Part shown: positions 4,007-63,452 of the stretch, in pieces
How the letters are laid out: every line of letters starts with the position of its first letter
How positions within the stretch are numbered: the first letter of the stretch is position 1
From: an uncultured virus (IMG/VR IMGVR_UViG_2872485971_000002)
Lineage: Duplodnaviria; Heunggongvirae; Uroviricota; Caudoviricetes
Direction: 5' to 3' (one strand)
IMG/VR virus record: IMGVR_UViG_2872485971_000002
Coordinates: 1-64,000 of that record
Length of the DNA: 64,000 nucleotides
Translations under genes and position numbers: made by a program
Notes under the pieces: model-generated
Seen by the model: only the letters and a program-made list of their open reading frames with translations
Databases searched by the model: none
Told to the model about the DNA's origin: nothing

Positions 4007-4254
4007 CGACTCCCCTCCTCTTTCTTTAATTATTCTTGTCCTTTGCTCAACATATTCATCCCATATAGATCCGTCTATACAATAATTATCTTTCAAACTT
4101 TTTAATATTCCTTATAGTCTGTATCTTCTCCCTTATTGTGTATTTCATTCAAAATCCTCAATAGCTTACCTTCAAGTGTTTCCTTATGTAAATTGAATAA
4201 GGTTTCCACTTGTTCTCCACTAATTTTATTTTTATTCTAAATAAAAGACCGATT

Positions 4255-4932
4255 TTATGTAGTTTTACATGCCAGAAAGACTCTGTTGATTAGCTCAAAT
4301 ACTGAATCCTCACTATCTGGATTAAATCTAATTAACTTATAACCTTTTCTTTTTATGTACTCTTCTCTAACCAATTCTTTGTGTTTCGAATAACTTTTAT
4401 GTCCATGCTCATCACATTCAATAGCAACCTTCTCTTCAATGACATAATCAATATAGTAAGTTCCACACTTCACTTGTTCCTCAATACTGAATACGTCTTT
4501 AAAAGCTGTACTGATAAACGCCCCTAACTTTTTCTCTTTTGCTTTATATTCTGCATTACCAATCACTACATCTGTAAATCTTTCTGGTAATTCAAGATGC
4601 CCAACGTTTTTCTGAAATTGTCTTGCGATAATGCTGTTCCGTAAAAGTAATCCTATTCTAAGTAAACCGTATATATTAACTAAGGATAGCCTTCTTACTT
4701 TTTTAAATTTGGGCGACTGAAAAATTGCTGCTTCCTGTTTCAATTTTTTCATTTCAACTGTTCTTATTTCTGAATATTGCTGTATTATTTTCATGTTCCT
4801 TTTCAATACTGTCTTAATTGTATCTTCAGGGACTTCGAAGTAATCACTTATCATCTGAACAGTGAATTCCTTTGTTGTTAATGACATTTCTATTGATTTA
4901 ACTTGGTCAAGTATTTGTAGGTAATTGTCCAT
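4255..4932 (-). CDS. DNA-binding N-terminus plus DUF559/Vsr-like endonuclease
   Basis: YYIDY...AIECDEHGH...GYKLIRFNPD C-terminal motif. Confidence 0.7.
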   Translation of the reverse strand: MDNYLQILDQVKSIEMSLTTKEFTVQMISDYFEVPEDTIKTVLKRNMKIIQQYSEIRTVEMKKLKQEAAIFQSPKFKKVRRLSLVNIYGLLRIGLLLRNSIIARQFQKNVGHLELPERFTDVVIGNAEYKAKEKKLGAFISTAFKDVFSIEEQVKCGTYYIDYVIEEKVAIECDEHGHKSYSKHKELVREEYIKRKGYKLIRFNPDSEDSVFELINRVFLACKTT

Positions 4933-4967
4933 CCTCGTCCCCCTTTCTAAATAAAATCAACATTTTA

Positions 4968-5273
4968 TCAATAATAAAACTCCATTAACGCATCTCTTCC
5001 TGCTCTGTTCAATAATTCAATATCGAATATTACATCTCTTCCCTTTAATTCGTTGTAATGATAATTAGGGTCATGCTTTTCATTGTAATGAATGAAGGAG
5101 ACGTTATGAGAAGTATATACGTCATAACGATTTTTCAAAATAATCAACATTCCATTTATCTCAATTGCTCCGATTGAAACATTGTTTAACATTGTCCTAC
5201 TGGGTAAAGAATGACGTAGTACACTTCTAAGTTCTTCGAATTTTTCACTTCTCTTATAACCATAACTGTTCAT
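4968..5273 (-). CDS. yotG: Hypothetical phage protein
   Basis: ORF with RBS; synteny. Confidence 0.6.
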   Translation of the reverse strand: MNSYGYKRSEKFEELRSVLRHSLPSRTMLNNVSIGAIEINGMLIILKNRYDVYTSHNVSFIHYNEKHDPNYHYNELKGRDVIFDIELLNRAGRDALMEFYY

Positions 5274-5469
5274 ATTGATCGTGCTCCTTTTCTGTATAAA
5301 ATTAGAATTTTATTTTCATTAAATTGAATAACCGCCTCATGCAACACACAAAACAAAAATGGCTGTAATAGACAGGAAAGCTAGTATAAAAATACAACCG
5401 TATAAAAACCCATTTAAAAACCCATGTGTATACTCTTTTAATTTAATCACCTTCTTTTTAAATTAATGT

Positions 5470-5498
5470 GTATATTTACAAAACATCTCCACACAATA
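5470..5498 (+). promoter_or_regulatory. sigG-type promoter of sspC
   Basis: GTATA-N17-CACAATA upstream of a SASP gene. Confidence 0.6.
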
Positions 5499-5542
5499 CA
5501 ATTGAACAAGCTTGTTTACATACAACTTTAGGAGATGATTAT

Positions 5543-5755
5543 ATGGCTCAACAAAACAGATCAAACAACAGCAATGAATTACTTGTGCCTCAAGCTGCTG
5601 GTGCCCTTGAACAAATGAAGTATGAAATTGCTTCTGAGTTCGGTGTGAACTTAGGGCCTGAGACAACTAGCCGAGCAAACGGTTCAGTAGGTGGAGAAAT
5701 CACAAAACGTTTAGTTCGCCTAGCCCAACAAAGCATGAATGGCCAATTTCATTAA
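5543..5755 (+). CDS. sspC: Alpha/beta-type small acid-soluble spore protein
   Basis: [10 protein letters not shown] and [16 protein letters not shown] signatures; AGGAG RBS. Confidence 0.95.
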
Positions 5756-5760
5756 TGTAT

Positions 5761-5785
5761 GAGGGGATTACTCCCCTCTCTTTTT
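5761..5785 (+). terminator. Intrinsic terminator after sspC
   Basis: GAGGGGA-tta-c-TCCCCTC hairpin followed by a T tract. Confidence 0.75.
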
Positions 5786-5835
5786 ATGCTCCTCTTCCAA
5801 ATCCATAAGTACTACTGGCATTGTATTCACCTCCT

Positions 5836-6024
5836 TTAGTGAACAAATGTACTTCGTCTAAGCAGCTCGTCTAAAACGATTTGAAGTTTTCTTCTTTGGT
5901 CTTTTATGTATGCATTGTTATCGGTACGCAATCCATCATTAATTCTATTTTGTATGTCTGTTTTCAGTCTCTCTAAGCTTTCAATTGGTAATTTTTCTAG
6001 ACTAACTTTATATGATTGATTCAT
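5836..6024 (-). CDS. yotC: Hypothetical phage protein
   Basis: ORF; ATG at 6024 after GGGGG RBS. Confidence 0.6.
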   Translation of the reverse strand: MNQSYKVSLEKLPIESLERLKTDIQNRINDGLRTDNNAYIKDQRRKLQIVLDELLRRSTFVH

Positions 6025-6270
6025 TTTAATAGCCCCCAGCAAAAACGAGTGAAATTATCAATAACCAAAAGACTGCTCCAGAAACAGCAAGAAAGCTTTT
6101 TGCAATACTCATAAACTCTTGAAAATCATTCTTCAACGACTCTTTCACTGCATCACCTTCTCTTTAAAATACAGATTTCATTTAGATTATATCCAGCGCT
6201 CCATCACAGTAAGGACATTTGCCATTATCCTCTTCGCATGTACACATATATTTCACCTCCGACGTCCTCC

Positions 6271-6624
6271 TCAAATATCATTTAATTGTTGTTTCAGATC
6301 AAAGAATTCATCATGAATAATTTTAAATTTATCCTTATTTATGTATGCTTTGTCATCATTAAGATTAAAAAGGTCTAAGTACTTTCTTTTATTTCTTCTA
6401 ATAATTCTTAAAGCAATCGTGCAGCTAACCCATTCTTCATCTTCCAATTGGGTTAAGACTTCGCTTAATTCGAATAACAATTTAAGCTTCCCTTTGTTTT
6501 GCTGAGTTTCAAGTCTTAAAAGATCTCTCTGTTTTTCAAGTAAAGTCGTTTCTATTTGATATTTCTTTTTCTCCAAGGCTACTAGCTGTTCGTTGGTGCT
6601 ATGTATTTTGTCTCCTACCTCCAA
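6271..6624 (-). CDS. yosX: Hypothetical coiled-coil phage protein
   Basis: 117 aa ORF, AAGGAGG RBS. Confidence 0.7.
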
Positions 6625-6928: not shown

Positions 6929-7048
6929 AAAAAACTCCCCATTCTGAATAAAATATTAGTTTTATCAAAATGCATATTTTTTGTTTTTGTATTTTAAATA
7001 AAAAACTGCTATTTCATCAACCTCTTGTTATTATATTATACATATTTT

Positions 7049-7570
7049 TTATTTTTGTCTATATTTATTTTCAAAAGTTAGGAAGGAATAATTGTATTTG
7101 TTCTTTTCATCGGCTTCATTATGTTGTTTATTAGTCACTTTCCAATGATCATCTAACATTGGGAAATATGAATCTGCTTCATTTGACTCTGAATCAACAA
7201 TTGTCAAATACACTTTATCAGCGTAGGGCAAGAATGCTTTGTAAATCATACTTCCCCCTATCACCATCACTTCCTCATCAGTGTTAACTTGACCTTGAAT
7301 GAGCTTTAAGACCTCCTCAATTGAATGATACACAAAGGATGAATAATCTGGCTTAAAGTTCTGATCCCTAGTAAGTATAATATTCCTTCTATTCTGTAGA
7401 GGCTTACCTGTCATACCGATAATTGATTCGTATGTTGATCTTCCTTGAATACATATTTTCCCCTCAGTTTTTTCTTTGAAATGTTTCATGTCAGCAGGCA
7501 CATGATACAGTAATTTGTTTTGATGTCCAATGGCCAGAGTTTTATCACAGCAAGCAATAAGAGATAGCAT
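7049..7570 (-). CDS. dfrA: Dihydrofolate reductase
   Basis: AIGxxNKL, DMKHFK, GRSTYESI, PLQNRRNIILT, VIGG, ADSYFP. Confidence 0.95.
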   Translation of the reverse strand: MLSLIACCDKTLAIGHQNKLLYHVPADMKHFKEKTEGKICIQGRSTYESIIGMTGKPLQNRRNIILTRDQNFKPDYSSFVYHSIEEVLKLIQGQVNTDEEVMVIGGSMIYKAFLPYADKVYLTIVDSESNEADSYFPMLDDHWKVTNKQHNEADEKNKYNYSFLTFENKYRQK

Positions 7571-9090: not shown

Positions 9091-9098
9091 ACACAATT

Positions 9099-10089: not shown

Positions 10090-10201
10090 TGATCTCTTTC
10101 CTCCTTATTGATTTAGATAAAAGTATTCTTTTATTGAAATCAGATCTCTCCTTTTCCCTATTTATGTTAAAATGAGTTAAAAAGGAAATTGTGGTGTATT
10201 T

Positions 10202-11338: not shown

Positions 11339-11388
11339 TGTTATGTAATATAGCTCCTTTTAATTTAAGTTTGTTTAAAATTACCCTT

Positions 11389-11631
11389 TTATCGTAATTC
11401 CTTTAATAACTCATCAAGTTCATTAGGCTTAAAACCAACACTTCGCTTTACTTCTTCTCCTTGATCATTCAGCAAAATGGTTACCGGTACTCCCATGACA
11501 CCAAATCTTGCTGCTACTTCTGGTTCCTGTGTAACGTCAACAGTCTCAAATTGAATATTTACTTGTTCTAAGTAATTGGACACCATTTTACATGGATTGC
11601 AATTAGGCTGCTCTAATTTAATTAATCTCAT
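11389..11631 (-). CDS. yosR: NrdH/thioredoxin-like redoxin
   Basis: CNPC motif, GVPV; follows nrdF. Confidence 0.9.
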
Positions 11632-13425
11632 TGAATACATCCTTTCTCGGTAAAAATGAAATCTGAATCCTTTAAAGGCTCCACTGTTGCTTTTTTGTAT
11701 CCATTCCCTTTAGTTGAAAAGAAGTCATGGGATTTGGTCTTAGTGCTCAATCCATTAATAACAATTGGGTTAACATCTTCTTCCTCAAACAGATGATCGA
11801 ATCCCAGGTTGTTTAAAGCTTTATTAGCATTGTATCTGATGAATTTCTTAACATCTGGAGCTAAGCCAACTTGATCATAGACATCTTCTGTATACTCTAA
11901 TTCATTTTCGTAAAGCTCCTGCAGTAAGTTTAATGCCCATTCATACAATTCCGTTTGCTTCTGTGGTGTTTGGTTCTTATATATCTCTTGAGCTAGCAAT
12001 CCGATGTATGTTCCATGTATCGCTTCGTCTCTAATACCCTTAGTTCAACCGAGTTCGCTACTATCGGTTCGTTGCCCTGTCGCAACCGCCTTACGTTACC
12101 GTAAGGAGCAGACTATATCATCATCCCTGTAGGATGCCTCCCGTTTCGATTTAAGGGGTTCTCACCCACGCCAATAGCTTGCGCCCTACTCGTTTTGCGG
12201 AATTTCGCCGCCTATGCGATAGTCGTTGAACGTTCTATGCGATCCCATAAAGTCTTCCATCTTCTTTTATGGCGAATTAGACTAACGTAACGAGGATGAA
12301 GGCTGTATTTTTCACCAGCTTCAACATTGTTCATTCCAGCAATCAAATCATAGATTAAATTTGTTGCCTCCATATTAGTGAGCTTTGACATTGAATTACT
12401 TTCTCCAGGTTGTCCTGACATTAATCCAATTTTCATTGCATGTAGAGTATTTTCTTTAGGTGTAACTATTTCTAAGTTCCGAATGTGGTTGTTTAGTTTA
12501 TTTCCATCTATGTGGTTTACAAACATTCCTTTTGGTATATCATGAATAAAATATTTTGCGACTAACCTATGTACTAAATAGTTCTGTGTTCCTTTTTTCG
12601 GATGCGTGTATCCTATCATTTCATAGCCATGTGGAGTAATAAATGTCTTTCTCGGTTTCTTTAATTTTTTTGATATGATAACTCCCGTTTCCGTTATCCA
12701 CCAAGGTGCTTCTTCGACTTCTTTCCTTATCATTTTCACCTCCTTTGGGTTCGCATAGCTTCGCTGCTGATTGTCCTAATAAGGATTTTCCAGCAATTAG
12801 AGAGGTTCACATTTGCCGTTGCCGACAAAAGGGACTATTAAATAATCAGGTTAATGATCTCTCCACTTTGCATGAGTTTCCCTTGTCCATAAAAGTAAAG
12901 TGGATAATAAAACCCTGAGTAGAAAAGGAAGCTCTCCAGAAACACAGACGCAACCATTGCTTTGAATAAGGAAATATCATCGTTTTTCTGAACTGCTTTA
13001 TAAATTGAAACAATTGTTTTTGCTTTCTTTTGAAGAAACCTATTGTTTTTCACCCATTCGAAGACTTCATTGATCTTCTCGGTTGGAGCCAAAGTTAGAA
13101 AGATGTTGCTGTAAGATTTCGCATGGACAGCATTTTCCATCATGGCCATAAAGTTTAATACTGCTTTCCGCTGGTGGCCGTCTACGTGTTCAGCCACGAT
13201 CGGCATCCCCGTATTCCCCTGCTCTGTATCAAGAAGCGTAAGTCCGGCCAGTACCTTCATATAAGTGTCCTGCTCATTTTTTCCGAGGTACTTCCATGTG
13301 AGGAGATCGCCGTTTAAAGCAATCTCTTCCGGAAGCCAGAACTGTTTCACGTTTTGGTTATAGAACATTTGGGTAAAATCGTCTTCATGCTTTGACCAGT
13401 TTGCTGCGTCATAAATTTTTGTCAA
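11628..13425 (-). CDS. nrdF: Class Ib ribonucleotide reductase beta subunit; exons 13425-12845 and 12036-11628 (329 aa spliced)
   Basis: Splicing restores [15 protein letters not shown]. Confidence 0.95.
12037..12844 (-). ncRNA. Group I intron in nrdF (808 nt) carrying an HNH ORF
   Basis: 5' exon ends in U pairing with G in P1 (GAU/UAUU..AAUAGUC); terminal G; GAUAUAGUCU S-like element. Confidence 0.92.
12212..12733 (-). CDS. yosQ: Intron-encoded HNH homing endonuclease
   Basis: VHRLVA...[11 protein letters not shown]...NLE; AGGAGG RBS. Confidence 0.92.
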
Positions 13426-16831: not shown

Positions 16832-16878
16832 TTTACATCTCCTTATTTTTTGTTTTTAATTTGAATAAAGCTGTGATT

Positions 16879-17082
16879 TTATCTAGATTTTTTGTTTGGC
16901 CATCCTTCGCCAAGAAGCTTTTTAGCCTCTTCAACATCTGTAAATCTTTCAATCTTGTGTCTATAATCATCTATCCACCGGTAAACACATACTGTATTTT
17001 CTTCAACTTTCATGACAGTGTATTGCTGCATAGGATCTTCTAAAAGGTGAAGCTTCTGATCTTTATAAAATCCTGGAATCAT
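16879..17082 (-). CDS. yosK: Hypothetical phage protein
   Basis: ORF with GGAGG RBS. Confidence 0.6.
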   Translation of the reverse strand: MIPGFYKDQKLHLLEDPMQQYTVMKVEENTVCVYRWIDDYRHKIERFTDVEEAKKLLGEGWPNKKSR

Positions 17083-17846: not shown

Positions 17847-17879
17847 TTGCTTCCTCCTTATCCCTTTAAAATCATCCTT

Positions 17880-18209
17880 TTATCCAATTTCTTTATTTTC
17901 ATCCTCAGTTAAATATTGAACAGTAAGTACAACCTTTGTTATTGGGGATTGAGAATTTTCAAACTCAACATTTGTTACTTTTAAAGCGAGGTAAAGGAAT
18001 TCTTTATGTTGGTAAATAGATAAAAATAATGGGAAGGAGCTTTTAAATCCTTTTTGAAGCTTTTTCAATTGACTATTGGTTAGATGAATAACTAATTTTT
18101 CATCCATTTCGGTTACAAAAATATCATTTAGCACTAAACATTCATCTGGCTCACACGGCAGCCACTTGTACAATCCCATATTATAAAATTTCAACTGTTC
18201 AATTTGCAC
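17880..18209 (-). CDS. Hypothetical protein
   Basis: ORF bracketed by palindromic repeats. Confidence 0.6.
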   Translation of the reverse strand: MQIEQLKFYNMGLYKWLPCEPDECLVLNDIFVTEMDEKLVIHLTNSQLKKLQKGFKSSFPLFLSIYQHKEFLYLALKVTNVEFENSQSPITKVVLTVQYLTEDENKEIG

Positions 18210-18260
18210 TTTTATTTCCCCCTGTCAAATATCTTTAAAATAAAACTTTTATTTAGATCT

Positions 18261-19138: not shown

Positions 19139-19175
19139 TTCAGTTGCTCCTTTCACGATAAAAATTGAATTTTAT

Positions 19176-19355
19176 TTAGATAATATTGATAATTAATAAA
19201 ACTAAACTGATTAAGAATGACATTCCAGCTAGAACTAATAACCCTAAAGCGATTTGAGGTTTTATTCTCCTTTTCGATCCATATGTATCTAATGATACAA
19301 GTCCAATCAACAAAAGACCGATGAAATCAAGAATATTAATTGCAAATTGCACCAT
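19176..19355 (-). CDS. Small two-TM membrane protein, 59 aa (yosB-like)
   Basis: MVQFAINILDFIGLLLIGLV...; GAGGAG RBS. Confidence 0.6.
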   Translation of the reverse strand: MVQFAINILDFIGLLLIGLVSLDTYGSKRRIKPQIALGLLVLAGMSFLISLVLLIINII

Positions 19356-19428
19356 GTCACTCCTCGTTATTTGTTTTGATTTGTCGCATACTGCGCTTGC
19401 CCGGGAAATTAATTTCTATTTCCTTTCA

Positions 19429-19617: not shown

Positions 19618-19636
19618 TCTCGATAAAAGGAATATT

Positions 19637-19855
19637 TTATCCTCTATTTTTGTATTTGTTATTTAGTCCTAAATGTTCTAATGTCTTCTTAACACTTAAA
19701 TTACTGCATTCATTTTTCACTCTCTCGGAATAACCCTTTGCACAGCCTTCACAACAATTGAAGTCTTCATAAGTTTTTTCATCGCTGATCCTAAGACAAA
19801 TTGTTTTTCCACTTATGTACTCTTTACAGATGTCACATATATGATTCATTAACAC
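19637..19855 (-). CDS. yorZ: Small CxxC protein
   Basis: CDIC...CCEGC; first gene after an SPBRE promoter. Confidence 0.6.
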   Translation of the reverse strand: MLMNHICDICKEYISGKTICLRISDEKTYEDFNCCEGCAKGYSERVKNECSNLSVKKTLEHLGLNNKYKNRG

Positions 19856-19915
19856 TCTCCTTTGTCCTAATGTAAATTTATTATATACATATTATTTGTA
19901 TTTGTCTATCGGTTT

Positions 19916-20964: not shown

Positions 20965-21007
20965 TCAATACACTCCTCTTATTTTACATTTGTTTAAAAG
21001 ACAAACT

Positions 21008-22327
21008 TTATTCAGATTCTTTATTAACGTATGTATGTATTAATTCCTTGAATATTGACTCAAGCACAGTTACAGTAATTGAATTACCGGCTTGCTTATA
21101 TAATTGTGAGTTACTTATTCCCGCAGCAAAAGCTTTTTCAAAATCTTCGTCATCAAAAGCCTGTAGCCTAAAGCACTCTAACGGTGTTAATCTTCTAATT
21201 CTGTATTTTGGATATTCTCCAACCGCTACCCCGTGTCTGTCAATTGTGTTTACTGTAAATGCTGGTTCACCGTCATCTTTAAATCTTCTTCCATTTTGTC
21301 GCTTCTCCCCCCTTTCTGGGGTTAATACTGGCCTTACCTCAACAACTGCATTTTGTTTTTGGTTCCTATTCAATCCTCTCCAGTCAGAAGCAGAAAGCGT
21401 ATGAGATACAGCTAGTTCTCGTCCAAGCCCGCTTTTTCTGGAGTACTCAACTGCAATTTTCAGTCCCTCTCCTTTATTAGTGGTAATTGTGGGGCTTAAT
21501 CCAGATGAATTATAAACATTTCCATTCATTCCATTACCAGAGGGATTAATATTACCTACTTGCTCAACAGTAAGATTTTCATTAAGTCGACTTGTAGACA
21601 GCTCTTTGATCAAACTGTTTGTTTTATCTTCATTCAAGTAGTACTTTTCATCAACGTATTCTTCTAATAAATCTTTTAGCCTCTTCGTAGCAGCCGATTG
21701 AGCTGTCCATCTAAAATTAAAGCTTTTAATATCTAATTCTGCCAATCTCTGTTTCCCTTTTTGAAGTATATCCTTTCTTTTAAAATCCAAAGACCATTCT
21801 TCATTTTTAATTAAATCTTCTCTAATTCCAATTATGTAAAGTCGCTCCCTATTTTGTGGAACATTAAAGAATTTTGAATTAAGCAGCTCTAGGTCAATTC
21901 TGTACCCAACTTCACTGAAAGCTTCAGCCATAACATTTAATGTATTTCCTTTATCATGGTTGATCAACCCTTTAACATTTTCAAAAACAAAAAACTTTGG
22001 TTGCTTTTCCTTAAGAGTCTCAACGTATTGAAAAAACAATGTCCCTCTTGTATCTTCAAATCCCTTTCGATGGCCGGCTACACTAAAGCTTTGACAAGGA
22101 GATCCTCCAACTAAAAGATCAAATTCAGGTAGTTTTTTCTTATCAATCTTGCTTACATCTCCAAAATTTAATTGCTCATCAACGTTGTGAATTGCACAAA
22201 AAGATTTGACGGCATATTTATCAATCTCACTAAAACCAACCAGCTCATAACCAACCCCAATGTTTCTTAGTGCAGCTTCAAATGCACCGATCCCACTAAA
22301 AAGACTCATTACACGTAGTTTACCCAA
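21008..22327 (-). CDS. mtbP: Multispecific DNA cytosine-5 methyltransferase (M.SPR-like, 439 aa)
   Basis: FSGIG, GSPCQSFS, ENVKG, QNRER, tandem TRDs, YKQAGNS. Confidence 0.93.
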   Translation of the reverse strand: MGKLRVMSLFSGIGAFEAALRNIGVGYELVGFSEIDKYAVKSFCAIHNVDEQLNFGDVSKIDKKKLPEFDLLVGGSPCQSFSVAGHRKGFEDTRGTLFFQYVETLKEKQPKFFVFENVKGLINHDKGNTLNVMAEAFSEVGYRIDLELLNSKFFNVPQNRERLYIIGIREDLIKNEEWSLDFKRKDILQKGKQRLAELDIKSFNFRWTAQSAATKRLKDLLEEYVDEKYYLNEDKTNSLIKELSTSRLNENLTVEQVGNINPSGNGMNGNVYNSSGLSPTITTNKGEGLKIAVEYSRKSGLGRELAVSHTLSASDWRGLNRNQKQNAVVEVRPVLTPERGEKRQNGRRFKDDGEPAFTVNTIDRHGVAVGEYPKYRIRRLTPLECFRLQAFDDEDFEKAFAAGISNSQLYKQAGNSITVTVLESIFKELIHTYVNKESE

Positions 22328-22356: not shown

Positions 22357-22384
22357 TCTAAATAAAATTGATCTTTTATTTAGA
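22357..22384. repeat. Perfect 11-6-11 palindrome, type member of a dispersed intergenic family (about 25 copies)
   Basis: TCTAAATAAAA-TTGATC-TTTTATTTAGA. Confidence 0.8.
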
Positions 22385-24708: not shown

Positions 24709-25431
24709 TTACCAGCTTACTCTTACATTTTTACGACCAAATGCATTTGCTTCTTGCTCACTGTCCATCAGAATATCAATACGATTGTTTTTAATATCTC
24801 CTCCTGTATCTATTGCATATGCTTGAAAGCTATTCCCTTCATATGAAACTTGCACTAATGAATACAAAGGAATTATTTCTGGATCAACAGCGATTATTCT
24901 TTTTCCATTGTAATAGGATGTGTTTGATACATCATAGCCGGTTTTTGTTTTCCCTGTGCACCCTGTAGAACAAAACGCTGTGTAAGCAGTGGCAATCACT
25001 TCATGACTCTTCACTGCCTTTACATTAGTACTTTTTGAAGCAGATTTATCTTCACTTCTCTTTTTATTGGTTTTTTGCACTTTTTTTGTCTTTGTATGTT
25101 TTGCTGCTTTTTTATTTTCTTCTGTTAGATATGTAATCGTCGCATTAAGATACTTTTTTCTACTTTCAGCCTGCTTTTCTTCCTCACTCTTTAGCCTGGG
25201 AAGGATTCTTGGAACGTCAATTTCATGAATTAGTTTTTGGGTCACCTCTTTTTTATTTAGATAAAATGACTCTTTTATTGAGACTTGATTGTCCTGATGT
25301 GTATACAAGTTTTTAGCGCTATATACGAGCCCTACTCCTAACAAACCAATTGTAGCAAAAAGTGTCATTTTGTTAATTCTATGATATACATATTTTTTGT
25401 GTTTGTCTATAAGTTTTTTGAAAATTTTCAT
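24709..25431 (-). CDS. yorM: Membrane-anchored 3D-domain (cell wall/Stationary phase survival-like) protein
   Basis: ATAYT...IAVDP..IPL...AIDTGGDIKNNRIDI; start uncertain. Confidence 0.85.
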   Translation of the reverse strand: MKIFKKLIDKHKKYVYHRINKMTLFATIGLLGVGLVYSAKNLYTHQDNQVSIKESFYLNKKEVTQKLIHEIDVPRILPRLKSEEEKQAESRKKYLNATITYLTEENKKAAKHTKTKKVQKTNKKRSEDKSASKSTNVKAVKSHEVIATAYTAFCSTGCTGKTKTGYDVSNTSYYNGKRIIAVDPEIIPLYSLVQVSYEGNSFQAYAIDTGGDIKNNRIDILMDSEQEANAFGRKNVRVSW

Positions 25432-25453
25432 CTCTCCTATCATCAGCTAAGAT

Positions 25454-32265: not shown

Positions 32266-33780
32266 TCATCCTGCTTTTATATTCAATTTCTCAACTGTGA
32301 TTAGTTCATTGTCAAGATTTGTTGTGAAACAGTCCTTAATCCGCATGTTGCCCATATTGATATGGGAAAAGACTTTAACTTTGTCATACTCATTCCCCCT
32401 ATTTTTAAATACATGTGTAACAAAATTTGGCTCTGGATAAAATCCTTCTTTTAAGATTGGATCAATTGCATCCTTCTCTTTTTTACTTAAAGGAAGAATT
32501 ATCATTGCAGCATCTGTTTTATCTGCGATGGCTTTACTTCCTCTCAAGTAAGAAGCATCTATTACTTGTCCTTTTAACCATGCTTCTTTCCAATCACCAT
32601 TCAGCTGAGTTGCACTCATCATATAGACATCGTATTTGTTACATAAGCCTTTTAACTTATCCGACATAAGTAAAAGAATTTGGTCTTCCCTCAAGTTGAC
32701 ACCACTTTTTTTGCTCATCTCTGAAAAAATGGTTACTGATGAGTGAATATAATCGAAATAAACGTACTCTACATTGTTTTTAATGACGTTCTTTTCAATT
32801 GTTCTTTCAATCTCCTGAATATTAAAATCAGGCAGATGTTCGAACCATATGTTAGACTCTTGAAGAACCTTAGCAGCCTTACGCACAAGTTGTTTTTCTT
32901 GTTCATTGATTGTGTTTCTAAGGATTTTTTTCTCTTCTACACCACTAATGTAGGCAAGTGCTAAGCTTTGCAATTCTTCGGCCATCATTTCTGTTGAAAT
33001 AACCGTAGAACTTTCACTCCATGGGTTTGATACCCATTCCTTCTTTTTAGGATCATAAAGTTCGGTTGCACTTAAGCGACAAGCGTCAGCGACCATGTTT
33101 CTTGTTTTACCGCCACCTGTAATACTTGAGCGCAGATAGAACTTTTTCTTCCGTGATCCACGAAAAATTGAGGTGAGCATTTCGCTATTTAATGGAACTC
33201 CAATATCCGGCGACTCTTCGAATGAATCCAATAATTCATTAATACCTTCTCCGCCCTGGATTCCTACACTTTCAGATGAAGTTCTGAATTTTTCTTTTAT
33301 GTCTACAATCTTCATTTCATAAGCTGTCAAAATTTCATCAATCGACTTCTTATCAAACTGTTCTTGCATCTTTTCTTGTTCTTTTGGGTCAATCAGAGAT
33401 TCATCATATATTTCCTTAATATCGAATCCCAAGCCATCCATTTCTCTAAGTAGACTAAACTTTTTTAATCTTTTATAGTGGTAATCAAAATTTTCGACAA
33501 CTGCCAACTCTTGTATTTTTTCTATATAATCAAGACCCTTATTATCATGGAAAATTTTATATTGAATATCGTAATCCTTTAGATATCCATCTATTTCAAC
33601 GTCATTCAATACTTCAGTTCCTTGATGAAATAGGTTGCTCATGGCAAAAAATAATATTGAATGAAACCTTGAAGGAAAATCATCCGAAGTTATCTTATAT
33701 TTATTGCTCTCTGACAAGATTGTGGGATCTTTTAAAATGCTCCCTAAAACTTGAATTATTGCCTGTTTGTCTTGTAGCAA
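32266..33780 (-). CDS. yorI: DnaB-like replicative helicase
   Basis: GGGKT, STEM, FDYI, ATQLN. Confidence 0.9.
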   Translation of the reverse strand: MLQDKQAIIQVLGSILKDPTILSESNKYKITSDDFPSRFHSILFFAMSNLFHQGTEVLNDVEIDGYLKDYDIQYKIFHDNKGLDYIEKIQELAVVENFDYHYKRLKKFSLLREMDGLGFDIKEIYDESLIDPKEQEKMQEQFDKKSIDEILTAYEMKIVDIKEKFRTSSESVGIQGGEGINELLDSFEESPDIGVPLNSEMLTSIFRGSRKKKFYLRSSITGGGKTRNMVADACRLSATELYDPKKKEWVSNPWSESSTVISTEMMAEELQSLALAYISGVEEKKILRNTINEQEKQLVRKAAKVLQESNIWFEHLPDFNIQEIERTIEKNVIKNNVEYVYFDYIHSSVTIFSEMSKKSGVNLREDQILLLMSDKLKGLCNKYDVYMMSATQLNGDWKEAWLKGQVIDASYLRGSKAIADKTDAAMIILPLSKKEKDAIDPILKEGFYPEPNFVTHVFKNRGNEYDKVKVFSHINMGNMRIKDCFTTNLDNELITVEKLNIKAG

Positions 33781-36730: not shown

Positions 36731-36816
36731 TATGTTTTATAAACTTTTATATTTTTTATTTTTGTGTTTCATTCGCAATCTTTCTAATTCGAATAAAATT
36801 ATCATTTTATTAAGAG

Positions 36817-40316: not shown

Positions 40317-40344
40317 TCTGGTTAAAATATCGTTTTTAACCAGA
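40317..40344. repeat. Perfect 11-6-11 palindrome of the same family
   Basis: TCTGGTTAAAA-TATCGT-TTTTAACCAGA. Confidence 0.75.
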
Positions 40345-41386: not shown

Positions 41387-41418
41387 TTCAATCCCCCATT
41401 TCTAATAAAATCTCTGTT

Positions 41419-41640
41419 TTATCTAGATCTTCTAATTTTATTTTTATCCAACAAATCAATTATGTAAGTCTCATACATGTCATCCCAATAAGGATTTGTT
41501 CTTGCTATGTACTTCTTTACTCTCCCATTCTCCTCAATCTTAAAGGTTTGCCCCTTTTGAATATCAGTGAACTTTTTCTTCCTCCAGATTCCCCTGATCA
41601 ACACTTCAACTTCTTTAACCTCTACTGTTTGCTGCATCAC
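41419..41640 (-). CDS. yoqX: Hypothetical phage protein
   Basis: ORF and synteny. Confidence 0.7.
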
Positions 41641-43264: not shown

Positions 43265-43503
43265 TCTCTCCGTTACATAACTCCTTAGAGCCTAGCCATT
43301 AAAAATCAAATGAAAATTTAGTACATGGATCAATTAGTTTTCGTTACCCCCTTTAATTAAAATAAATAGTTTATTTTAAATGACTTTTTTCTCTAAACCT
43401 TTTTAAATTTCCAAAATTCATTTCACCTTTATTACTGCAAGCAGGTTGTCATACGCTTGCCATATAAAAGAGACTGGACATTTTTGTCTCGGAGGTGAAA
43501 TAA

Positions 43504-43939: not shown

Positions 43940-43970
43940 CTGTTACCTCCCTATAAAAACTATCTTTTAT

Positions 43971-44996: not shown

Positions 44997-45169
44997 TTAT
45001 TTTATTTTTATTCTTTATCCGTTTATATGTATTCCATCCGCAGCTGTCAAAAATGCTTATGTCCGCTCCAAGGTGCCATTTAAACCAAACTAAGTTAAAC
45101 CAGGCGATTTCAAATACGTATTTGATGAATCCTATCCTATTGCCCTCCATTCTGCATAAAGTAATCCTT

Positions 45170-45562
45170 TTAAACAAAAATCAATTCAGGCTCTTTATCC
45201 TCTTCATATCGTTTGTAGCCAATAAAATATTCCTCATCCTTTTTATAAATAAACGGTGAAATCCACTCAATAAAACTCTCAATCTCATTATCATAGTTTT
45301 TTAGATTGCATCTAATTGTCACATAGCGCCCACCTACAAGAGTATCGTTTACAATTTCGCTGTGAGTTTTTCCATCAAAATAATAGCTATCAGATTGAAG
45401 CATCCATTTCCATCTACTTCCTCCCGAAAATAGTTTATGATCTGGCAGCTCATCTGGATGCTCATCTCGTTGACCGCTCATAAACTCCAACGTTTCAATA
45501 ATGTGACTTGGTGTTTCCTTAATTAGCTCAAAAGCACATACCAATTCTGTATACATTCCCAT
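45170..45562 (-). CDS. Hypothetical phage protein
   Basis: MGMYTE...NLKNYDNEIESFIEWI; flanked by palindromes. Confidence 0.7.
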   Translation of the reverse strand: MGMYTELVCAFELIKETPSHIIETLEFMSGQRDEHPDELPDHKLFSGGSRWKWMLQSDSYYFDGKTHSEIVNDTLVGGRYVTIRCNLKNYDNEIESFIEWISPFIYKKDEEYFIGYKRYEEDKEPELIFV

Positions 45563-45611
45563 TAATACAACTCCCTCTCTTTAAAACAGTCTTTTTATTC
45601 AGTCCATGAGT

Positions 45612-46307: not shown

Positions 46308-46389
46308 TGAAAGTTCCTCACAATTTTTTTAGTTAATTTTCCTTATTTCTGGATTGATTATTCATTTGTATTTGATTAAATCTTCAATT

Positions 46390-46653
46390 TTATTTTGATT
46401 TAATCTCAACAATAAGACTGTCAGGATAGTTCTTCAAATCAAGTGCGTTTACATGACAGTGACCTACATATCCTTCTTTATCAACGTAATTATAATAGAA
46501 CTTTTCCCCATTATTAATGATAACTTCACCCTGATGTGTATACTCCATCTCTGATCCCTTGTACCATGTTACTTTAACTTTTGTGCCAGGTATGATTTTA
46601 TTTAAATCAAATATTGTTATTTCTTTTAGCAAAATCATTTCCTCCATTTCCAT
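46390..46653 (-). CDS. Hypothetical protein
   Basis: ORF with GGAGG RBS. Confidence 0.65.
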   Translation of the reverse strand: MEMEEMILLKEITIFDLNKIIPGTKVKVTWYKGSEMEYTHQGEVIINNGEKFYYNYVDKEGYVGHCHVNALDLKNYPDSLIVEIKSK

Positions 46654-47257: not shown

Positions 47258-47366
47258 ATTACAGAATAGCTCAGGTCATCGAGAGGACTCTTGGTGACCT
47301 TCTATAATGTTTTATTCACCCATTTCCCTTTTCCACTCTCTATAAAATTTTACTTTTATCTAGAAT

Positions 47367-49565: not shown

Positions 49566-49612
49566 ATTCTATCAACCTTTCTGATTTTTATTTGTTTAAA
49601 ATGCATCTTTTA

Positions 49613-50020
49613 TCACTTCTTTGCAGCATAGCTCTCAAAGAATTCTTCAACTGATCTTAGATAACGGTATTTATTTGGATCTTCTGGGTTTCTGAATCTC
49701 TTCGATAACACCAATGACCAATTAAACATCAATGGGGAAAATCTTGCCCATTTGCTAAAGCTTAACTGTAGGCCTTTCCATTCCCTACCCGCTAGTTCTG
49801 CTAATTCTAGAATCTGATCTTCTTTTATGTTCACTTCGTCTTCAAACATCACTTGAATTTCTTCGTATGGTTTATGCCCAAAACAACAGTGGCGTGTTTT
49901 TAATCCAATTTTGAAATTTAAAATATCAATTAAATGAATCATTTGTGTATCAAGTTCATCATATGGGATACCATTTCGGATGAATTTTTCTCTTTGGTTT
50001 GTTTTCACATTAACCTCCAA
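49613..50020 (-). CDS. yoqC: Hypothetical phage protein
   Basis: 135 aa, TRHCCFGH; synteny. Confidence 0.7.
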
Positions 50021-51626: not shown

Positions 51627-51714
51627 GTGATATCCCCCTCCAATTTGAATCTCGATAAAACTTACATTTTATCCACTAATTTTAATTTTGTTACCTTAGT
51701 GAAAATTACACAAT

Positions 51715-51909: not shown

Positions 51910-52020
51910 AGCTCCCTTTACCATCTCCTATATACATATTATTTGTATTTGAATAAACTATAACCCATCATTTAATATCTGTCAATTAGATTCGGCCAAT
52001 TTATGTGACCGAATCTAATT

Positions 52021-55487: not shown

Positions 55488-55593
55488 ATAGCCTTTCACC
55501 TCATGTCATGTTGCTAAATTTAAAGTTACCAAAGGCAATCTGGTTAATCAAGAAGAATTATCATTTGAACTGAGTAATATACCGAAAAAATGA

Positions 55594-56670
55594 TTATCGC
55601 TCATTTACATGCTTTATAAACTTTTTTAATGTAACAAGATCAGCGTTTTCAAAAAAACTAATAAAATCCTCTTGGGTTGCTTCATATAGTGGATTTAAAT
55701 CGATTTTTTCATCCATTGTTACACCAGCAGAGTTCGCTATGTTAATCTTTCTGCTCATATATCTCTCTGTTGTTAATGTGTTTTTATGATTTCCTTGTTC
55801 TTTTGCTGCAAGTAAATCGTGACCAGAATTCTCATAGACATAGTCAATTCCTACACCCTTAAATGAGTGTAAGACTAATTCTCTTTCAGGAGGTATTCCT
55901 AACCTTTTTTTCGACCTTTTTAAGGAGTGTCGTAAAGATTGTTCCGAAAGCCCCTGAAAAACCAATTCAGTTTCGCTGTCATCCTCTTCCTTCAGCTGCA
56001 ACAATTCCTCATAAAATACCTGGTTAATGCCTGTAGACACAACCTGAGATCCTTTATCAATAACTGTTACTATATAATGGCCTGTACTTTCATCAAGCTG
56101 TATGTCTTTCCATCTTACTCGCAAAATCGCACTTACACGAAAAGAAGTTCTGATGGCGAATTTAACAAACAGCTTTTTCATTAAAGGTTTCTGTCTTTCA
56201 TTTATATACATATCCTGAGCGATTCTTTCGGCTTCTGTCTGGGTTGTTTTATCCCAGTTTTTAGTTACTGTTTTAAGCCTTTCGACAGTATTAAACACCG
56301 ACAAGTCAATATAGTCCTTATAATCATGCTCCAAATATGTATAGAGCATCTTCAAGGAGGTCATTTTTCTGTTAATACTATTATTAACTAATCCCTTTTC
56401 CTGAAGATACTTCACATAGTTGCTTAATTCGCTTTTACTTACAACTAAATCATCGGGAACTAAACTTTTGACATCTTTACCTTTAATCACACTAAAGAAC
56501 TGCTTAATATCCCCTTCATAATTCTTTCTGGTGTTCGACACCCTTCTAGTTGATGAAGGCATCATATAGTTAGAATTCCCTGAGCTACTTCTTATATCTT
56601 TATTGATTAAAAAGCCCTCGATATCATCGTAAACCGCATAATTTTTTAATTGTTTAATTTTATTTTGCAT
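55594..56670 (-). CDS. yopP: SroD, tyrosine recombinase-family protein
   Basis: SAM-like N-terminus; FRVSA, DKG, LHSFK, GNH..TTERY. Confidence 0.88.
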   Translation of the reverse strand: MQNKIKQLKNYAVYDDIEGFLINKDIRSSSGNSNYMMPSSTRRVSNTRKNYEGDIKQFFSVIKGKDVKSLVPDDLVVSKSELSNYVKYLQEKGLVNNSINRKMTSLKMLYTYLEHDYKDYIDLSVFNTVERLKTVTKNWDKTTQTEAERIAQDMYINERQKPLMKKLFVKFAIRTSFRVSAILRVRWKDIQLDESTGHYIVTVIDKGSQVVSTGINQVFYEELLQLKEEDDSETELVFQGLSEQSLRHSLKRSKKRLGIPPERELVLHSFKGVGIDYVYENSGHDLLAAKEQGNHKNTLTTERYMSRKINIANSAGVTMDEKIDLNPLYEATQEDFISFFENADLVTLKKFIKHVNER

Positions 56671-56872
56671 TATCTTCTCCTCCTTTCTCATCTAATAACT
56701 CATCAATAGAGACATTCAACACCAGAGCGATAAGCTTTATGGTTGTAACATCTGATTCATCTGGCATTTCAATGATTTTGTTTAATGTCTGCATATCAAT
56801 CATTGTCTCCCTCGACAATTCCTCTATTGTGATGCCACGTTTGACCATTAGCTGTTTTATTCGCTCTGACAT
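56660..56872 (-). CDS. yopO: XRE HTH regulator (SroC)
   Basis: HTH_XRE. Confidence 0.85.
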   Translation of the reverse strand: MSERIKQLMVKRGITIEELSRETMIDMQTLNKIIEMPDESDVTTIKLIALVLNVSIDELLDEKGGEDNAK

Positions 56873-57440: not shown

Positions 57441-57529
57441 ACCACCAACCTCCTATATACATATTTTTTATCTTTTGCATCTATAGCAATTGTAATGCAT
57501 TACAAAAGGGAAGTAAAGATTTTTTTAAC

Positions 57530-59067: not shown

Positions 59068-59241
59068 TATTTCCCCTCATTTCTTTTTGTTGTCTTTATT
59101 GGTTAACTTAATAATACTATAGATCACATTACGAGTCAATTATTTTATACATATTTTTTGTATTTGTATTCTCTTTAAAATTCCTATTTTAATTAGATAC
59201 AATGAGGAATAGCTCCTCATTGCACAAAGTTAATTCCACCT

Positions 59242-60922: not shown

Positions 60923-60990
60923 ACTTTTCACCTTCATTTTTAATTTTTAAAACGTAGTACAATTAACAATGCAGATTACTATAAAATCAA

Positions 60991-61785: not shown

Positions 61786-61813
61786 TTTACACGTTCCCCT
61801 CAGATCCGCTTTA

Positions 61814-62115
61814 TTAGTGTTCCTCTCTCATCTTTTTGTTTAGTTTGAAGCCAATTAAGACATTGACAATAGCTGCTGGAAGATATAAAACTCCTGCACC
61901 TATTATTCCTAATGCAGTACTTGAGCTCACAATGAATGTCTGCATTTCTGTGTTTCTTGACTTCAAGCAAAGTAATACTAGGAGTCCAGCTAAAACCCCC
62001 ATAAGACGTGCAATACCTGGAATAAAGAAATCTGTTAGGACTCCAAATAATTGCCCTATAATTGATAGCACAATCCCTAAAAAGCTGGACAATAAAACTA
62101 AATTTTTAATGGCAT
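61814..62115 (-). pseudogene. Membrane protein gene with a frameshift in an A5 run near the start
   Basis: The RBS-supported ATG at 62115 hits TAG after five codons; one extra A would join it to ORF 61814-62092. Confidence 0.5.
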
Positions 62116-62126
62116 TTCACCCCTTT

Positions 62127-62258
62127 TCAAAGCCGCTTCCATTCCACATACTCAAACCGTTTATGATATAGGTCTTCAAGTATAGCAGCCCATTCAATCC
62201 AACCTTCTGCAACAATGTTTTTCTTTTCTCCATTCTCAATCCACTCTATCCAATACAC
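62127..62258 (-). CDS. yopG: Small Trp-rich protein, 43 aa
   Basis: MYWIEWIENGEKKNIVAEGWIEW... Confidence 0.6.
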   Translation of the reverse strand: MYWIEWIENGEKKNIVAEGWIEWAAILEDLYHKRFEYVEWKRL

Positions 62259-62268
62259 CTGAACACTC

Positions 62269-62484
62269 CTAACGCTTTACGACTTGAATTTCCCTTACCT
62301 CACATTGCACATTACACTTCGTTTTAAGCTCACTTGCTACCTCGATGACTTCTAACATATTATGCATTTTAGAAGCTTCATGGAGGTCGCTAGATGTCAA
62401 ATAACCACTCTCATCTAATTTAAATGCTTTAAAGTATTCCTTGTTTTCAAACTGCAGTACATAAAAATAATCAATCAAAGGCAT
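62269..62484 (-). CDS. yopF: Hypothetical phage protein
   Basis: 71 aa; synteny. Confidence 0.65.
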   Translation of the reverse strand: MPLIDYFYVLQFENKEYFKAFKLDESGYLTSSDLHEASKMHNMLEVIEVASELKTKCNVQCEVREIQVVKR

Positions 62485-62487
62485 AAA

Positions 62488-62739
62488 TCAACCTCTTTTA
62501 AATAATTTTGTAATCCTCATTGCCAATGGCAGTAAACCAATTAACATAAAAAAAGCAATCACATTAAGCTTATTTTTGAAAAACAGGCTGGCCAAATTCC
62601 TTTCCATGCCCGCTGCTGTTTCTTTATCCATGAGTTCTTTAAACTCCTCATCATAGACCTGATCAACAAAAATAAACTTAATGCCGGTCAATAATCCAAC
62701 TCCAAGCCAGATAATTAAAAAATAAGCTAATCCAATCAT
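62488..62739 (-). CDS. yopE: Two-TM membrane protein
   Basis: 83 aa; synteny. Confidence 0.7.
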   Translation of the reverse strand: MIGLAYFLIIWLGVGLLTGIKFIFVDQVYDEEFKELMDKETAAGMERNLASLFFKNKLNVIAFFMLIGLLPLAMRITKLFKRG

Positions 62740-62809
62740 TTGTTCCCTCCCTATATCGAACGAAATTTGGTATTCTTGAGTATGTTGAATAAATTATGTA
62801 GGTGATCTT

Positions 62810-62989
62810 GTGGAAGAGAATTATGAAACAAACGGATATGACACTTCAATCGTTTATGATTACAAAGAATATCCAGATGTAAAATACGGACGCTGCGATA
62901 ATTGTGATTACACTTTGTTCAAAAGCTCTGTGAAGAGTGGGATATTCTTGCGTGAATGCCGGCGCTGCGGTATGAAAAAGAGCATTTAG
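62810..62989 (+). CDS. Small zinc-ribbon protein, 59 aa
   Basis: GTG after AGGTG; CDNC...CRRC. Confidence 0.65.
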   Translation: MEENYETNGYDTSIVYDYKEYPDVKYGRCDNCDYTLFKSSVKSGIFLRECRRCGMKKSI

Positions 62990-63142
62990 ATTAATGCTCT
63001 TTTTGTTTAAAACACTTCTTTTATATTGATCCCTTTGTAATAAAAGGTGACCTTTAATTCCGCAGAAATATAGAGTCCCAAATTCAAAAATTAGACCAAA
63101 ATGCCAATGTATAAGCGTACTCCCCTCCAAATCTTCAGATCA

Positions 63143-63364
63143 TCATTTAATCCAATAAGCTGGCGGAACACTCAATACTCGATACTGTTCATCTAAGTAA
63201 GCATGTTTCCTTTCCCAATCACTTTTCTTCCACGCTTCTTGATTTGGGAATGACGGATCTATTGGCTTTGGATATTCTCCGTTCACCCATCCATCTTCAA
63301 TATGATTTAGTTTGGCTTCGTTACCTTTATCATCGTATTTGTACCAGACTGTTATCATTTCCAT
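63143..63364 (-). CDS. Hypothetical protein
   Basis: ORF with GGGAGAGGG RBS. Confidence 0.65.
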   Translation of the reverse strand: MEMITVWYKYDDKGNEAKLNHIEDGWVNGEYPKPIDPSFPNQEAWKKSDWERKHAYLDEQYRVLSVPPAYWIK

Positions 63365-63452
63365 AAGTCATCCCTCTCCCTTTAAAATGTAGTTTTATTC
63401 ATAAATAGAACGGAACAAAAATAGTGAATACAACAGACTTAATTTTATTTGG

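Follow-up and report, generated by a model that had tools for sequence, protein, structure and literature searches.

Dyad-symmetric linker sites at gene junctions of SPbeta-like phages: joints of genome mosaicism with a position-specific 6-bp spacer

We analysed a stretch of 64,000 nucleotides from an uncultured virus, the first 64 kb of a 124,640-bp provirus record (IMG/VR IMGVR_UViG_2872485971_000002; hereafter the window). Over the parts they share, the window is ~96% identical to SPBc2 (SPbeta), phi3T, SPR and the Goe phages, in reversed orientation. It spans the early region of these phages (yot, yos, yor, yoq and yop genes; sense on the minus strand of the window) and includes a repressor operon encoding MrpR, YopQ (DndB/ParB-like), YopO [XRE helix-turn-helix (HTH)] and YopP (Phage_integrase-family). 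Dispersed through this region are copies of a short palindromic element, WTAAAA-N6-TTTTAW, which consists of two 6-bp arms around a 6-bp spacer and which we call the linker site (Table 1).

The exact motif occurs 25 times in the window, compared with a mean of 0.51 and a largest count of 5 in dinucleotide shuffles, and 36 times in the whole 124.6-kb phage (30 of them in the first 68 kb, the other 6 in the late half). Thirty of the 36 exact copies fall within 17,217 bases of intergenic DNA and 12-nt gene ends, where 300 shuffles gave a mean of 0.2 and a largest count of 3; the 107 kb of open reading frame (ORF) interior hold the other 6. Spacing is equally restricted. All other spacings from N0 to N12 occur 0–2 times each in the window, the everted arrangement occurs 0–4 times, and in 11 other SPbeta-like sequences N6 gives 20–38 copies while N4, N5, N7 and N8 give 0–3. 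These counts confirm a real, spacing-specific enrichment confined to gene junctions. With a position weight matrix (PWM), 43 sites were found in the phage at a threshold where random sequence gives 2.3; the centres of 34 of these are intergenic on the longest-ORF map, which draws some ORFs too long (one of them runs over 25261).

The original prediction, made from the window alone, had listed 21 exact copies and eight one-mismatch variants. All 21 were recovered, together with four further copies (25261, 32437, 53328 and 62092), and all eight variants are among the 21 one-mismatch matches of the window. The fixed 6-bp spacer, the enrichment over AT-rich intergenic background and the perfect 11-6-11 palindromes at 22357 and 40317 also held. 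The interval from 24.7 to 35.3 kb, said to be free of copies, contains a strong one at 25261 and a probable chance one at 32437.

On the sense strand the sites share the consensus TCT-nn-ATAAAA-N6-TTTTAW-nn-AGA, with TCTnnATAAAA as the conserved half-site. They occupy gaps of ~40 bp between genes, where the upstream stop codon is often a TAA inside the left arm and the next ribosome-binding site begins a few bases past the right arm. The counts bear out this placement, which the original prediction had anticipated. An ORF of at least 35 codons stops within −30 to +24 of the core start at 31/43 sites, and at 22/43 the stop codon lies within or abuts the left arm (offsets +1, −3 and −2). A Shine-Dalgarno sequence and start codon follow within 150 nt at 33/43 sites, at 17–22 nt after the core in 13 of these 33. 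Two copies, before aimR and before yorE, are located between a terminator and the next promoter.

The spacer had been described as variable, which is correct within one genome; across genomes, each position keeps its own spacer. The 483 sites found in 16 sequences carry only 119 different spacers, and a spacer was repeated within a genome once. The window's phage shares 21–34 identical spacers with each of eight whole genomes, where less than one is expected, and 954 of the 955 shared spacers in 36 genome pairs are collinear. Among 1617 pairs of sites with the same spacer, 862 have unlike flanks on both sides, 496 on one side and 259 on neither, so that 1358 pairs have at least one unlike flank. 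For 28 of the 43 sites the same spacer is present in at least five of the eight genomes, accompanied by as many as 8 left-flank and 10 right-flank types. When sites were paired by their flanks only (n = 131), mismatches per base came to 7.1% for the inner flanks (5 + 5 positions), 1.5% for the arms and 1.9% for the spacer. Near-identical spacers are scarce within a genome, approximately three times rarer than in a composition-matched model (2–6 observed, 7.5–12.4 expected), with P from 0.008 to 0.17 per genome for genomes that are not independent. Spacers seemed to drift in pairs with 2–5 flank mismatches, a class that we dropped; 7 of its 8 pairs with differing spacers were chance pairings of unrelated positions. 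Because the arms are the same everywhere and the 6-bp middle is kept per position across the family, the middle appears to act as an address. This per-position fixation, as read from the compared sequences, is new here and goes beyond the original prediction.

We compared the first 68.5 kb of the phage with 11 other SPbeta-like sequences (parts of SPBc2, phi3T and Goe11 and eight whole IMG/VR proviruses), taking break points and events from chained BLAST. The comparison gave 201 distinct replacement or insertion/deletion events and 162 break-point clusters, 46 of which lie within 10 bp of a core where 3.3 would be expected under uniform breaks; the suggested relation between break points and motif is thereby borne out. 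A break lies no more than 10 bp away from 32 of the 37 early-region sites, all except 25261, 32437, 40322, 53328 and 64053. In base-level alignments homology ends at the edges of the 17–18 bp core, and at sites such as 19623, 22362, 36793 and 49596 one phage has a new upstream flank and another a new downstream flank around an unchanged core. As had been proposed for the window, a variable gene can have a site on either side, and for several genes this is so in both genomes of a comparison; six events have all four ends at sites. In one of the six, phi3T and a second genome (G010) have cleanly lost the DNA between sites 46376 and 45581, leaving a joint composed of the left arm of 46376 and the spacer and right arm of 45581. 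Arm variants and the inner 5 nt go with their own flank (odds ratios 5.6, 7.7, 15 and 35) more than with the opposite flank (2.1, 1.9, 2.2 and 2.9), which places the exchange point between the two arms, in keeping with the earlier expectation that it would fall in the spacer.

Matches of the off-diagonal kind expected for translocated cassettes numbered three against the 11 comparators, one of them starting at a site. Together with the collinearity of the shared spacers, this argues for exchange in place and not for integron- or pdif-like mobility; the mobile pdif-like cassettes of the original prediction do not relocate in these genomes. The genome comparison shows the cores to be preferred joints for in-place exchange of gene modules. 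The presence or absence of introns and inteins in the nrd genes provides an internal negative control, its breaks lying far from any site.

Within these ribonucleotide-reductase genes, presence/absence differences at 12009–12857, 14725–14728 and 15148–15402 have no linker site near them. Segments of ~830 bp and 253 bp present here are missing in some relatives, and ~1150 bp missing here are present in SPBc2, phi3T and two further genomes (G005 and G008). They are probably intron, intein or homing-endonuclease polymorphisms. In Goe12, SPbetaL2 and Goe13, the match to SPBc2 115900–117300 (L002 12900–14300) stops at query base 532, exactly where the SPBc2 counterpart of window site 19623 ends.

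A different repeated intergenic element is already described for these phages. SPBRE (SPbeta repeated element), a prediction of 1999, was identified in 2023 as the target of MrpR (YopR), a master repressor with a tyrosine-recombinase fold (Kohm et al. 2023, PMC10516654). In the text of that paper available to us, chromatin affinity purification sequencing (ChAP-seq) of MrpR gave ten peaks, all at promoters previously identified as containing SPBRE, which suggests that the known repressor is not the binder of the linker sites. The element common to the yorE, yorZ, yosX, aimR, yopM and yopV promoters contains AAAWAATATGTATA. This core (at most one mismatch) is present in 8 copies in the window, with 0.39 expected, and none is at the position of a linker site. 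The copies compared with SPBc2 are located at promoters named in the MrpR paper (yosX, yorZ, yorM, yorE, yopV, yopM and aimR). SPBRE resembles the linker sites in being a repeated intergenic element of the same family, and 6 of its 8 copies have a linker site within 300 bp, some at 30–90 bp. It differs in sequence, in overlapping early promoters and in number (about ten loci in the accessible description, as against ~40 linker sites). The linker site as the SPBRE/MrpR operator was therefore ruled out, the two being different motifs at different positions.

The strict 28-bp pattern was found in 62 stretches in IMG/VR, 40 of which have a BLAST match to SPbeta-like references; six of these 40 matches span at most 69 bp, and three of the six cover just the ~30 bp of the site. 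Four more distant large proviruses contain 4–12 cores, compared with 0–1 for a control pattern. Phylogenetic profiling of the four for the binder did not discriminate, since three hold both YopP-like and MrpR-like genes; the fourth, a 63%-complete fragment, holds neither. Within 20 kb around YopP homologues there are 7 exact cores in B. pumilus, 8 in B. glycinifermentans, 4 in Bacillus sp. T33-2 and 5 in Terribacillus aidingensis, with 0–1 for other spacings, and the B. pumilus locus has five spacers in common with the window's phage. The core is unchanged around YopP homologues of 47–30% identity in these four species, so that no co-variation of motif and YopP can be read from them. Of two whole host genomes, one has no copy of the extended pattern and the other has 2. 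Both copies are in Terribacillus aidingensis (G016:C3:295135-295160 and 305833-305858), both are perfect, and they lie ~45–55 kb from the coordinates of the YopP homologue if C3 is, as we assumed, the same contig as the named one. One has the spacer GATGCA, that of window site 49596, and the other GGTCAA, one change from the spacer of site 22362; addresses may thus be kept across genera.

Whether the sites are read as DNA or as RNA bears on what they could do. The mirrored variable positions 0/19, −1/20 and −3/22 do not covary (paired in 9, 6 and 16 of 36 sites, with 9.2, 8.2 and 14.8 expected from independent columns). Of six copies folded, the ordinary ones gave −0.2 to −1.6 kcal/mol, like shuffles, and the stable ones were the perfect 22357 (−8.8 kcal/mol) and the near-perfect 47342 (−7.1 kcal/mol, with a 2-nt internal loop). 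Across 12 sequences the one-mismatch spectrum is mirror-symmetric (12 A>G changes at position 3, 20 T>C changes at its mirror, position 16), and substitutions compatible with G.U pairing in the sense RNA are not in excess (18, against 28 mirror changes). Over 4–23 kb neither promoter-like signals (57, against 72.9 in shuffles) nor terminator-like signals (9, against 7.8) are in excess. A ribosome-profiling run has no ends at sites, but its 490 reads are too sparse to bear on processing. The absence of covariation, the weak folds and the symmetric mismatches favour two half-sites read on double-stranded DNA by a dimeric protein. Of the alternatives in the original prediction, a protein-bound double-stranded site therefore fits and an RNA-processing hairpin fits poorly. 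An mRNA element, in the form of an intercistronic AU hairpin for processing, stability or translation of early polycistronic transcripts, would account for sites within operons between a stop codon and the next ribosome-binding site, for start codons often placed 17–22 nt past the core and for the stable hairpins of 22357 and 47342, whose outer flanks are complementary. By our own reading the right flank AGAA-GGAG resembles an extended Shine-Dalgarno sequence. We nevertheless regard such an element as very unlikely: besides the folding and substitution data, some copies lie between a terminator and the next promoter, and a hairpin gives no reason for its loop to be position-specific and conserved.

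A rival that accepts double-stranded recognition holds that the sites are operator-like (stoperator-like), bound by a dimeric regulator (an XRE HTH protein or a non-catalytic YopP) that controls or insulates expression of the early operons. Gene exchange at the sites would then be a by-product of short repeated homology, as with the promoter-early stem-loops (PeSLs) of T4-type phages, whose published shuffling is, from the text available, a precedent. The dyad, the fixed spacing, the ~40 junction copies, the signs of double-stranded recognition, the six SPBRE promoters of the window with a site nearby, the two sites between terminator and promoter, and the XRE HTH proteins encoded beside the repressor operon all suit this reading, and in the accessible part of their paper the MrpR authors suggest further factors for specific binding (PMC10516654). 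A regulator blind to the spacer, however, leaves unexplained both the constancy of the spacer at each position (1.9% mismatch against 7.1% in the inner flanks) and the scarcity of near-identical spacers within a genome, and we consider this rival improbable, less so than the mRNA element. Far less probable still is a role as dif-like or pdif-like sites on which the host's Xer recombinases, RipX and CodV, would act. The geometry of dif sites is matched by the 6-bp spacer between dyad arms and by the two perfect 11-6-11 copies, and a core unchanged across host genera would suit a conserved host enzyme; but the two copies of the extended pattern in host genomes lie beside a prophage, and the modules do not relocate. 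The arms, moreover, are presumably unlike those of B. subtilis dif. That the motif has no function and arose from AT-rich intergenic composition, stop codons and common descent has a negligible chance of being right. The genome is AT-rich and the left arm does contain TAA, but these do not explain the excess over shuffled intergenic DNA, the strict N6 in 12/12 sequences tested and four further species, or cores that are islands of identity between flanks mismatching at 39–61%.

We lean, by a little, towards reading the ~40 dyad-symmetric, double-stranded linkers per genome as addressed linkers for in-place gene exchange. A dimeric protein would bind the two arms. When two genomes are present together (phage with prophage, or two phages infecting the same cell), same-address copies would exchange strands in the central ~12 bp. 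One event would recombine the genomes in register and swap everything on one side; two events at two addresses would swap one cassette and leave gene order undisturbed. Unlike addresses would protect a genome from internal deletions.

For the reaction itself, our first candidate, held tentatively, is a dedicated site-specific reaction by YopP, an orphan Xer-like recombinase. YopP and MrpR, both in the repressor operon, are the only tyrosine recombinases present. In the YopP family R185, K213, H275, H302 and Y311 are kept, with K or R at 278 (15/15 members), and the family profile matches an XerC-like protein (E 1e-10) and XerA (4e-9), whose catalytic R, K, HxxR, H and Y line up with these residues; its match to IntI4 is weak (E 9e-4). 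The accessible text of the SPbeta papers lists YopP as an integrase-domain protein without giving it a function, and names SprA as the SPbeta integrase. A possible but doubtful extension is natural multi-site cassette exchange, with ~40 heterospecific sites whose 6-bp overlap is the address and a YopP that would recombine only same-address sites of another SPbeta-like genome. If so, the phages could swap any module in register with the genome guarded against internal deletions, a natural counterpart of engineered lox/FRT cassette exchange. The second candidate, which we rate only a little lower, needs no dedicated enzyme. Short-homology recombination would act on the 18–28 identical bases, carried out by Sak4-like and RecJ-like phage proteins or by the host, and the dyad would serve another purpose such as regulation.

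Several observations weigh against addressed exchange or limit its reach. Junctions without the motif are also often broken (41/93 within 10 bp and 50/93 within 30 bp), so that the excess at sites is moderate (odds ratio 5.5 for 32/37 against 50/93), and with three comparators only the junction test is weaker (15/25 against 32/93, p = 0.037). Of the 201 events, 100 touch no site. Taken with the broken motif-less junctions, this means that the sites are not needed for mosaicism, and it tempers the recombination-site or scar reading of the original prediction, which holds in that sites coincide with mosaic joints. The accessory regions that are dense in sites are also those where genes turn over fast, and the junction-level association is inflated as a result; shared ancestry makes pair counts non-independent and overstates the p-values. 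Pairs of sites that share one flank have different spacers in 175/626 cases (~28%), and with the phi3T/G010 deletion, which joined two addresses, this indicates that identity of address is not obligatory. In the available text on laboratory phi3Ts × SPbeta hybrids, 15/16 junctions are in long homology (10.1101/2020.05.06.055103). In the hybrid Hyb2 phi3Ts-SPbeta the sequence switches from phi3T-like to SPbeta-like within ~970 bp that start at a site and are identical in both parents, so that the crossover cannot be placed. As to the enzyme, in this phage and in close relatives YopP carries Lys instead of the expected Arg II. In lysogens yopP is reported to be expressed together with the repressor, a pattern that a regulator could show as well.

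Addressed linkers would resemble heterospecific lox/FRT sites, in which the arms are identical, the spacer decides the partner, unlike spacers prevent intramolecular deletion and two sites bracket a cassette. The linker sites follow this logic of common arms with a site-unique spacer shared by the partner site (119 spacers among 483 sites). They differ in that lox/FRT sets are engineered and have a proven recombinase, whereas the linker sites are known from sequence and include the one-flank-sharing pairs with unlike spacers noted above. Xer dif/pdif sites, which on Acinetobacter plasmids bound gene modules, are tyrosine-recombinase sites with a 6-bp centre. The linker sites have their geometry (two ~11-bp arms and a 6-bp centre); the accompanying mobility of modules between replicons or positions was not found among the collinear spacers and off-diagonal matches. 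Integron attC arrays likewise carry promoterless small genes. The linker sites are not attC sites, because the core is a fixed 18–28 bp and not a variable long palindrome, and there is no intI/attI platform.

Stoperators are protein-binding sites present in tens of copies in the short intergenic gaps of a temperate phage; they are asymmetric, bound by a monomeric immunity repressor and oriented with transcription. The linker sites share the many copies in short intergenic gaps. Asymmetry and binding by the immunity repressor do not apply, as the linker site is a dyad with symmetric mismatches and the repressor peaks are at SPBRE. The stoperators in question are those of Cluster A mycobacteriophages, as far as the text available describes them (PMC9283540). 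The nearest described element is the PeSL (Arbiol et al. 2010, PMC2839356; Comeau et al. 2014, PMC4122927). According to the accessible text, PeSLs are short conserved intergenic repeats among small accessory early genes, and the ends of insertions, deletions and replacements in related phages fall at the repeats, as they do at linker sites. A PeSL, however, combines a sigma-70-type promoter with a terminator hairpin; every copy is a possible partner for every other, and mini-circles result. The linker sites have no promoter or terminator signal, are 18–28 bp dyads and have a position-specific middle kept across genomes. Identity with a promoter-plus-terminator stem-loop was rejected, since such signals are not in excess and ordinary copies fold weakly.

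No published description of the motif was found in the literature searched, which included two SPbeta papers, the 1999 genome paper being outside its scope. We class the sites among phage modular-exchange linkers, a known kind; should the addressed site-specific mechanism prove real, they would form a new category. How tailed phages keep their gene order yet exchange genes freely is an old question of modular evolution and 'linker' sequences, with few concrete answers at the level of sequence. Here the joints are defined and countable, in a tractable system (B. subtilis with SPbeta or phi3T), and the prediction is sharp: the arms would serve recognition and the middle the choice of partner. 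If an enzyme is involved, a core gene of the family gains a function and the sites form a natural set of orthogonal recombination sites; if not, addressed repeats of 18 bp would suffice to channel mosaicism. For annotators, the motif is distinct from SPBRE.

Table 1. Linker sites and related features of the window. Strand is entered as '.' for linker sites, and spacers are given on the sense strand; counts out of 8 refer to the other whole genomes and counts out of 15 to the other sequences.
Feature	Position	Strand	Spacer	Observations
Linker site	4241..4258	.	TCGGTC	Exact; same in 7/8 genomes; 8 left-flank types; replaced segment 4262-4944 beside it is bounded by sites in both genomes compared
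Linker site	4951..4968	.	TGTTGA	Exact; same in 7/8 genomes; 6 left- and 9 right-flank types
Linker site	5296..5313	.	TTCTAA	Exact; same in 7/8 genomes; phi3T homology stops just past the site
Linker site, one arm mismatch (ATGAAA)	6164..6181	.	TCTGTA	Same in 8/8 genomes
Linker site in yosX leader	6948..6965	.		Exact; adjoins SPBRE-like copy
Linker site	10117..10134	.	GAATAC	Exact; breaks at 10131-10140 in six comparators
Linker site	11375..11392	.	GGGTAA	Exact; insertions of other genomes begin 0–24 bp from the site
Linker site, one arm mismatch (CTTTAT)	16865..16882	.	TCACAG	Same in 7/8 genomes; 8 left-flank types
Linker site	17866..17883	.	GGATGA	Exact; 7 left- and 9 right-flank types
Linker site	18235..18252	.	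GTTTTA	Exact; same in 8/8 genomes; 6 left- and 10 right-flank types
Linker site	19158..19175	.	TTCAAT	Exact; same in 8/8 genomes; 19181-19618 replaced between two sites
Linker site	19623..19640	.	TATTCC	Exact; core kept although phi3T has another upstream flank and SPBc2 and Goe11 have another downstream flank
Linker site, one arm mismatch (ATAAAG)	20994..21011	.	TTTGTC	Breaks at 21011-21019 in five comparators
Perfect 11-6-11 site before DNA methyltransferase gene	22357..22384	.	GATCAA	Exact; RNA fold −8.8 kcal/mol; upstream flank different in SPBc2 and phi3T
Linker site between yorM promoter/SPBRE (25385) and yorM	25261..25278	.		Exact; PWM 27.3
Probable chance copy in helicase ORF	32437..32454	.		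PWM 14.2; no break; one flank type on either side
Linker site after terminator, upstream of yorE promoter/SPBRE	36793..36810	.		Exact; 13.5-kb homology block stops at 36811, beside the site
Perfect 11-6-11 site	40317..40344	.	ACGATA	Exact; same in 7/8 genomes; no break within 10 bp
Linker site	41405..41422	.	CAGAGA	Exact; breaks at 41400-41432 in 11/11 comparators
Linker site, one arm mismatch (ATAAAC)	43357..43374	.		One-mismatch match
Linker site	43953..43970	.	GATAGT	Exact; same in 11/15 sequences, including B. pumilus prophage
Degenerate copy, right arm TTTAAA	44274..44291	.		One mismatch; below PWM cut-off; homology of four genomes, which carry a site there, resumes at 44274
Linker site, one arm mismatch (CTTTAT)	45156..45173	.	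GGATTA	One end of three events with all four ends at sites
Linker site	45581..45598	.	AGACTG	Exact; same in 13/15 sequences; 8 left- and 6 right-flank types
Linker site, one arm mismatch (ATTTAA)	46376..46393	.		Joint of phi3T/G010 deletion to 45581
Linker site	47342..47359	.	GTAAAA	Exact; PWM 29.0; right-arm variants go along with right flank
Linker site	49596..49613	.	GATGCA	Exact; core kept with either flank replaced
Linker site	51655..51672	.	TGTAAG	Exact; same in 11/15 sequences
Probable chance copy inside repressor gene	53328-53345	.		PWM 10.1; no break; one flank type on either side
Linker site between terminator and aimR promoter/SPBRE	59175..59192	.		Exact
Probable chance copy inside ORF	62092-62109	.		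PWM 10.4; one flank type on either side
Linker site	63007..63024	.	GAAGTG	Exact; breaks at 63003-63030 in 11/11 comparators
Degenerate copy	63381..63398	.		One mismatch; below PWM cut-off; 5-base spacer reading possible
yopP-like Xer-type tyrosine recombinase gene, candidate enzyme	55594..56691	-		Pfam Phage_integrase E 1.8e-10
SPBRE core copy	725-738	+		AAAWAATATGTATA, at most one mismatch
SPBRE core copies	7037-7050, 19884-19897, 25385-25398, 36706-36719, 51931-51944, 57456-57469, 59146-59159	-		AAAWAATATGTATA, at most one mismatch

Between yopP and the repressor gene lies the YopQ-like gene (54105–55499, minus strand), with a match to Pfam DndB (E 6e-16), a family of ParB-like DNA binders associated with DNA-sulfur modification; in the arbitrium paper YopQ is described as ParB_N_Srx-like. 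By this family assignment YopQ is another candidate DNA binder in the repressor operon.

The longest yorM-like ORF (24709–25443, minus strand) crosses both the SPBRE promoter at 25385 and linker site 25261, and the annotated yorM of phi3T is shorter, leaving an 85-bp gap after the polymerase gene. The true yorM start is probably downstream of site 25261, and the start given in the SPBc2 RefSeq record may be too far upstream.

Two unrelated genes are preceded by the same long leader, TTAGAATAAAAATAAAAT, at 4259–4285 and 22380–22406 (sense on the minus strand), followed in each case by the ribosome-binding site. The leader directly follows sites 4241 and 22362, as a second reusable 5' leader piece, and in phi3T and Goe11 it follows their copy of the site corresponding to 41405.

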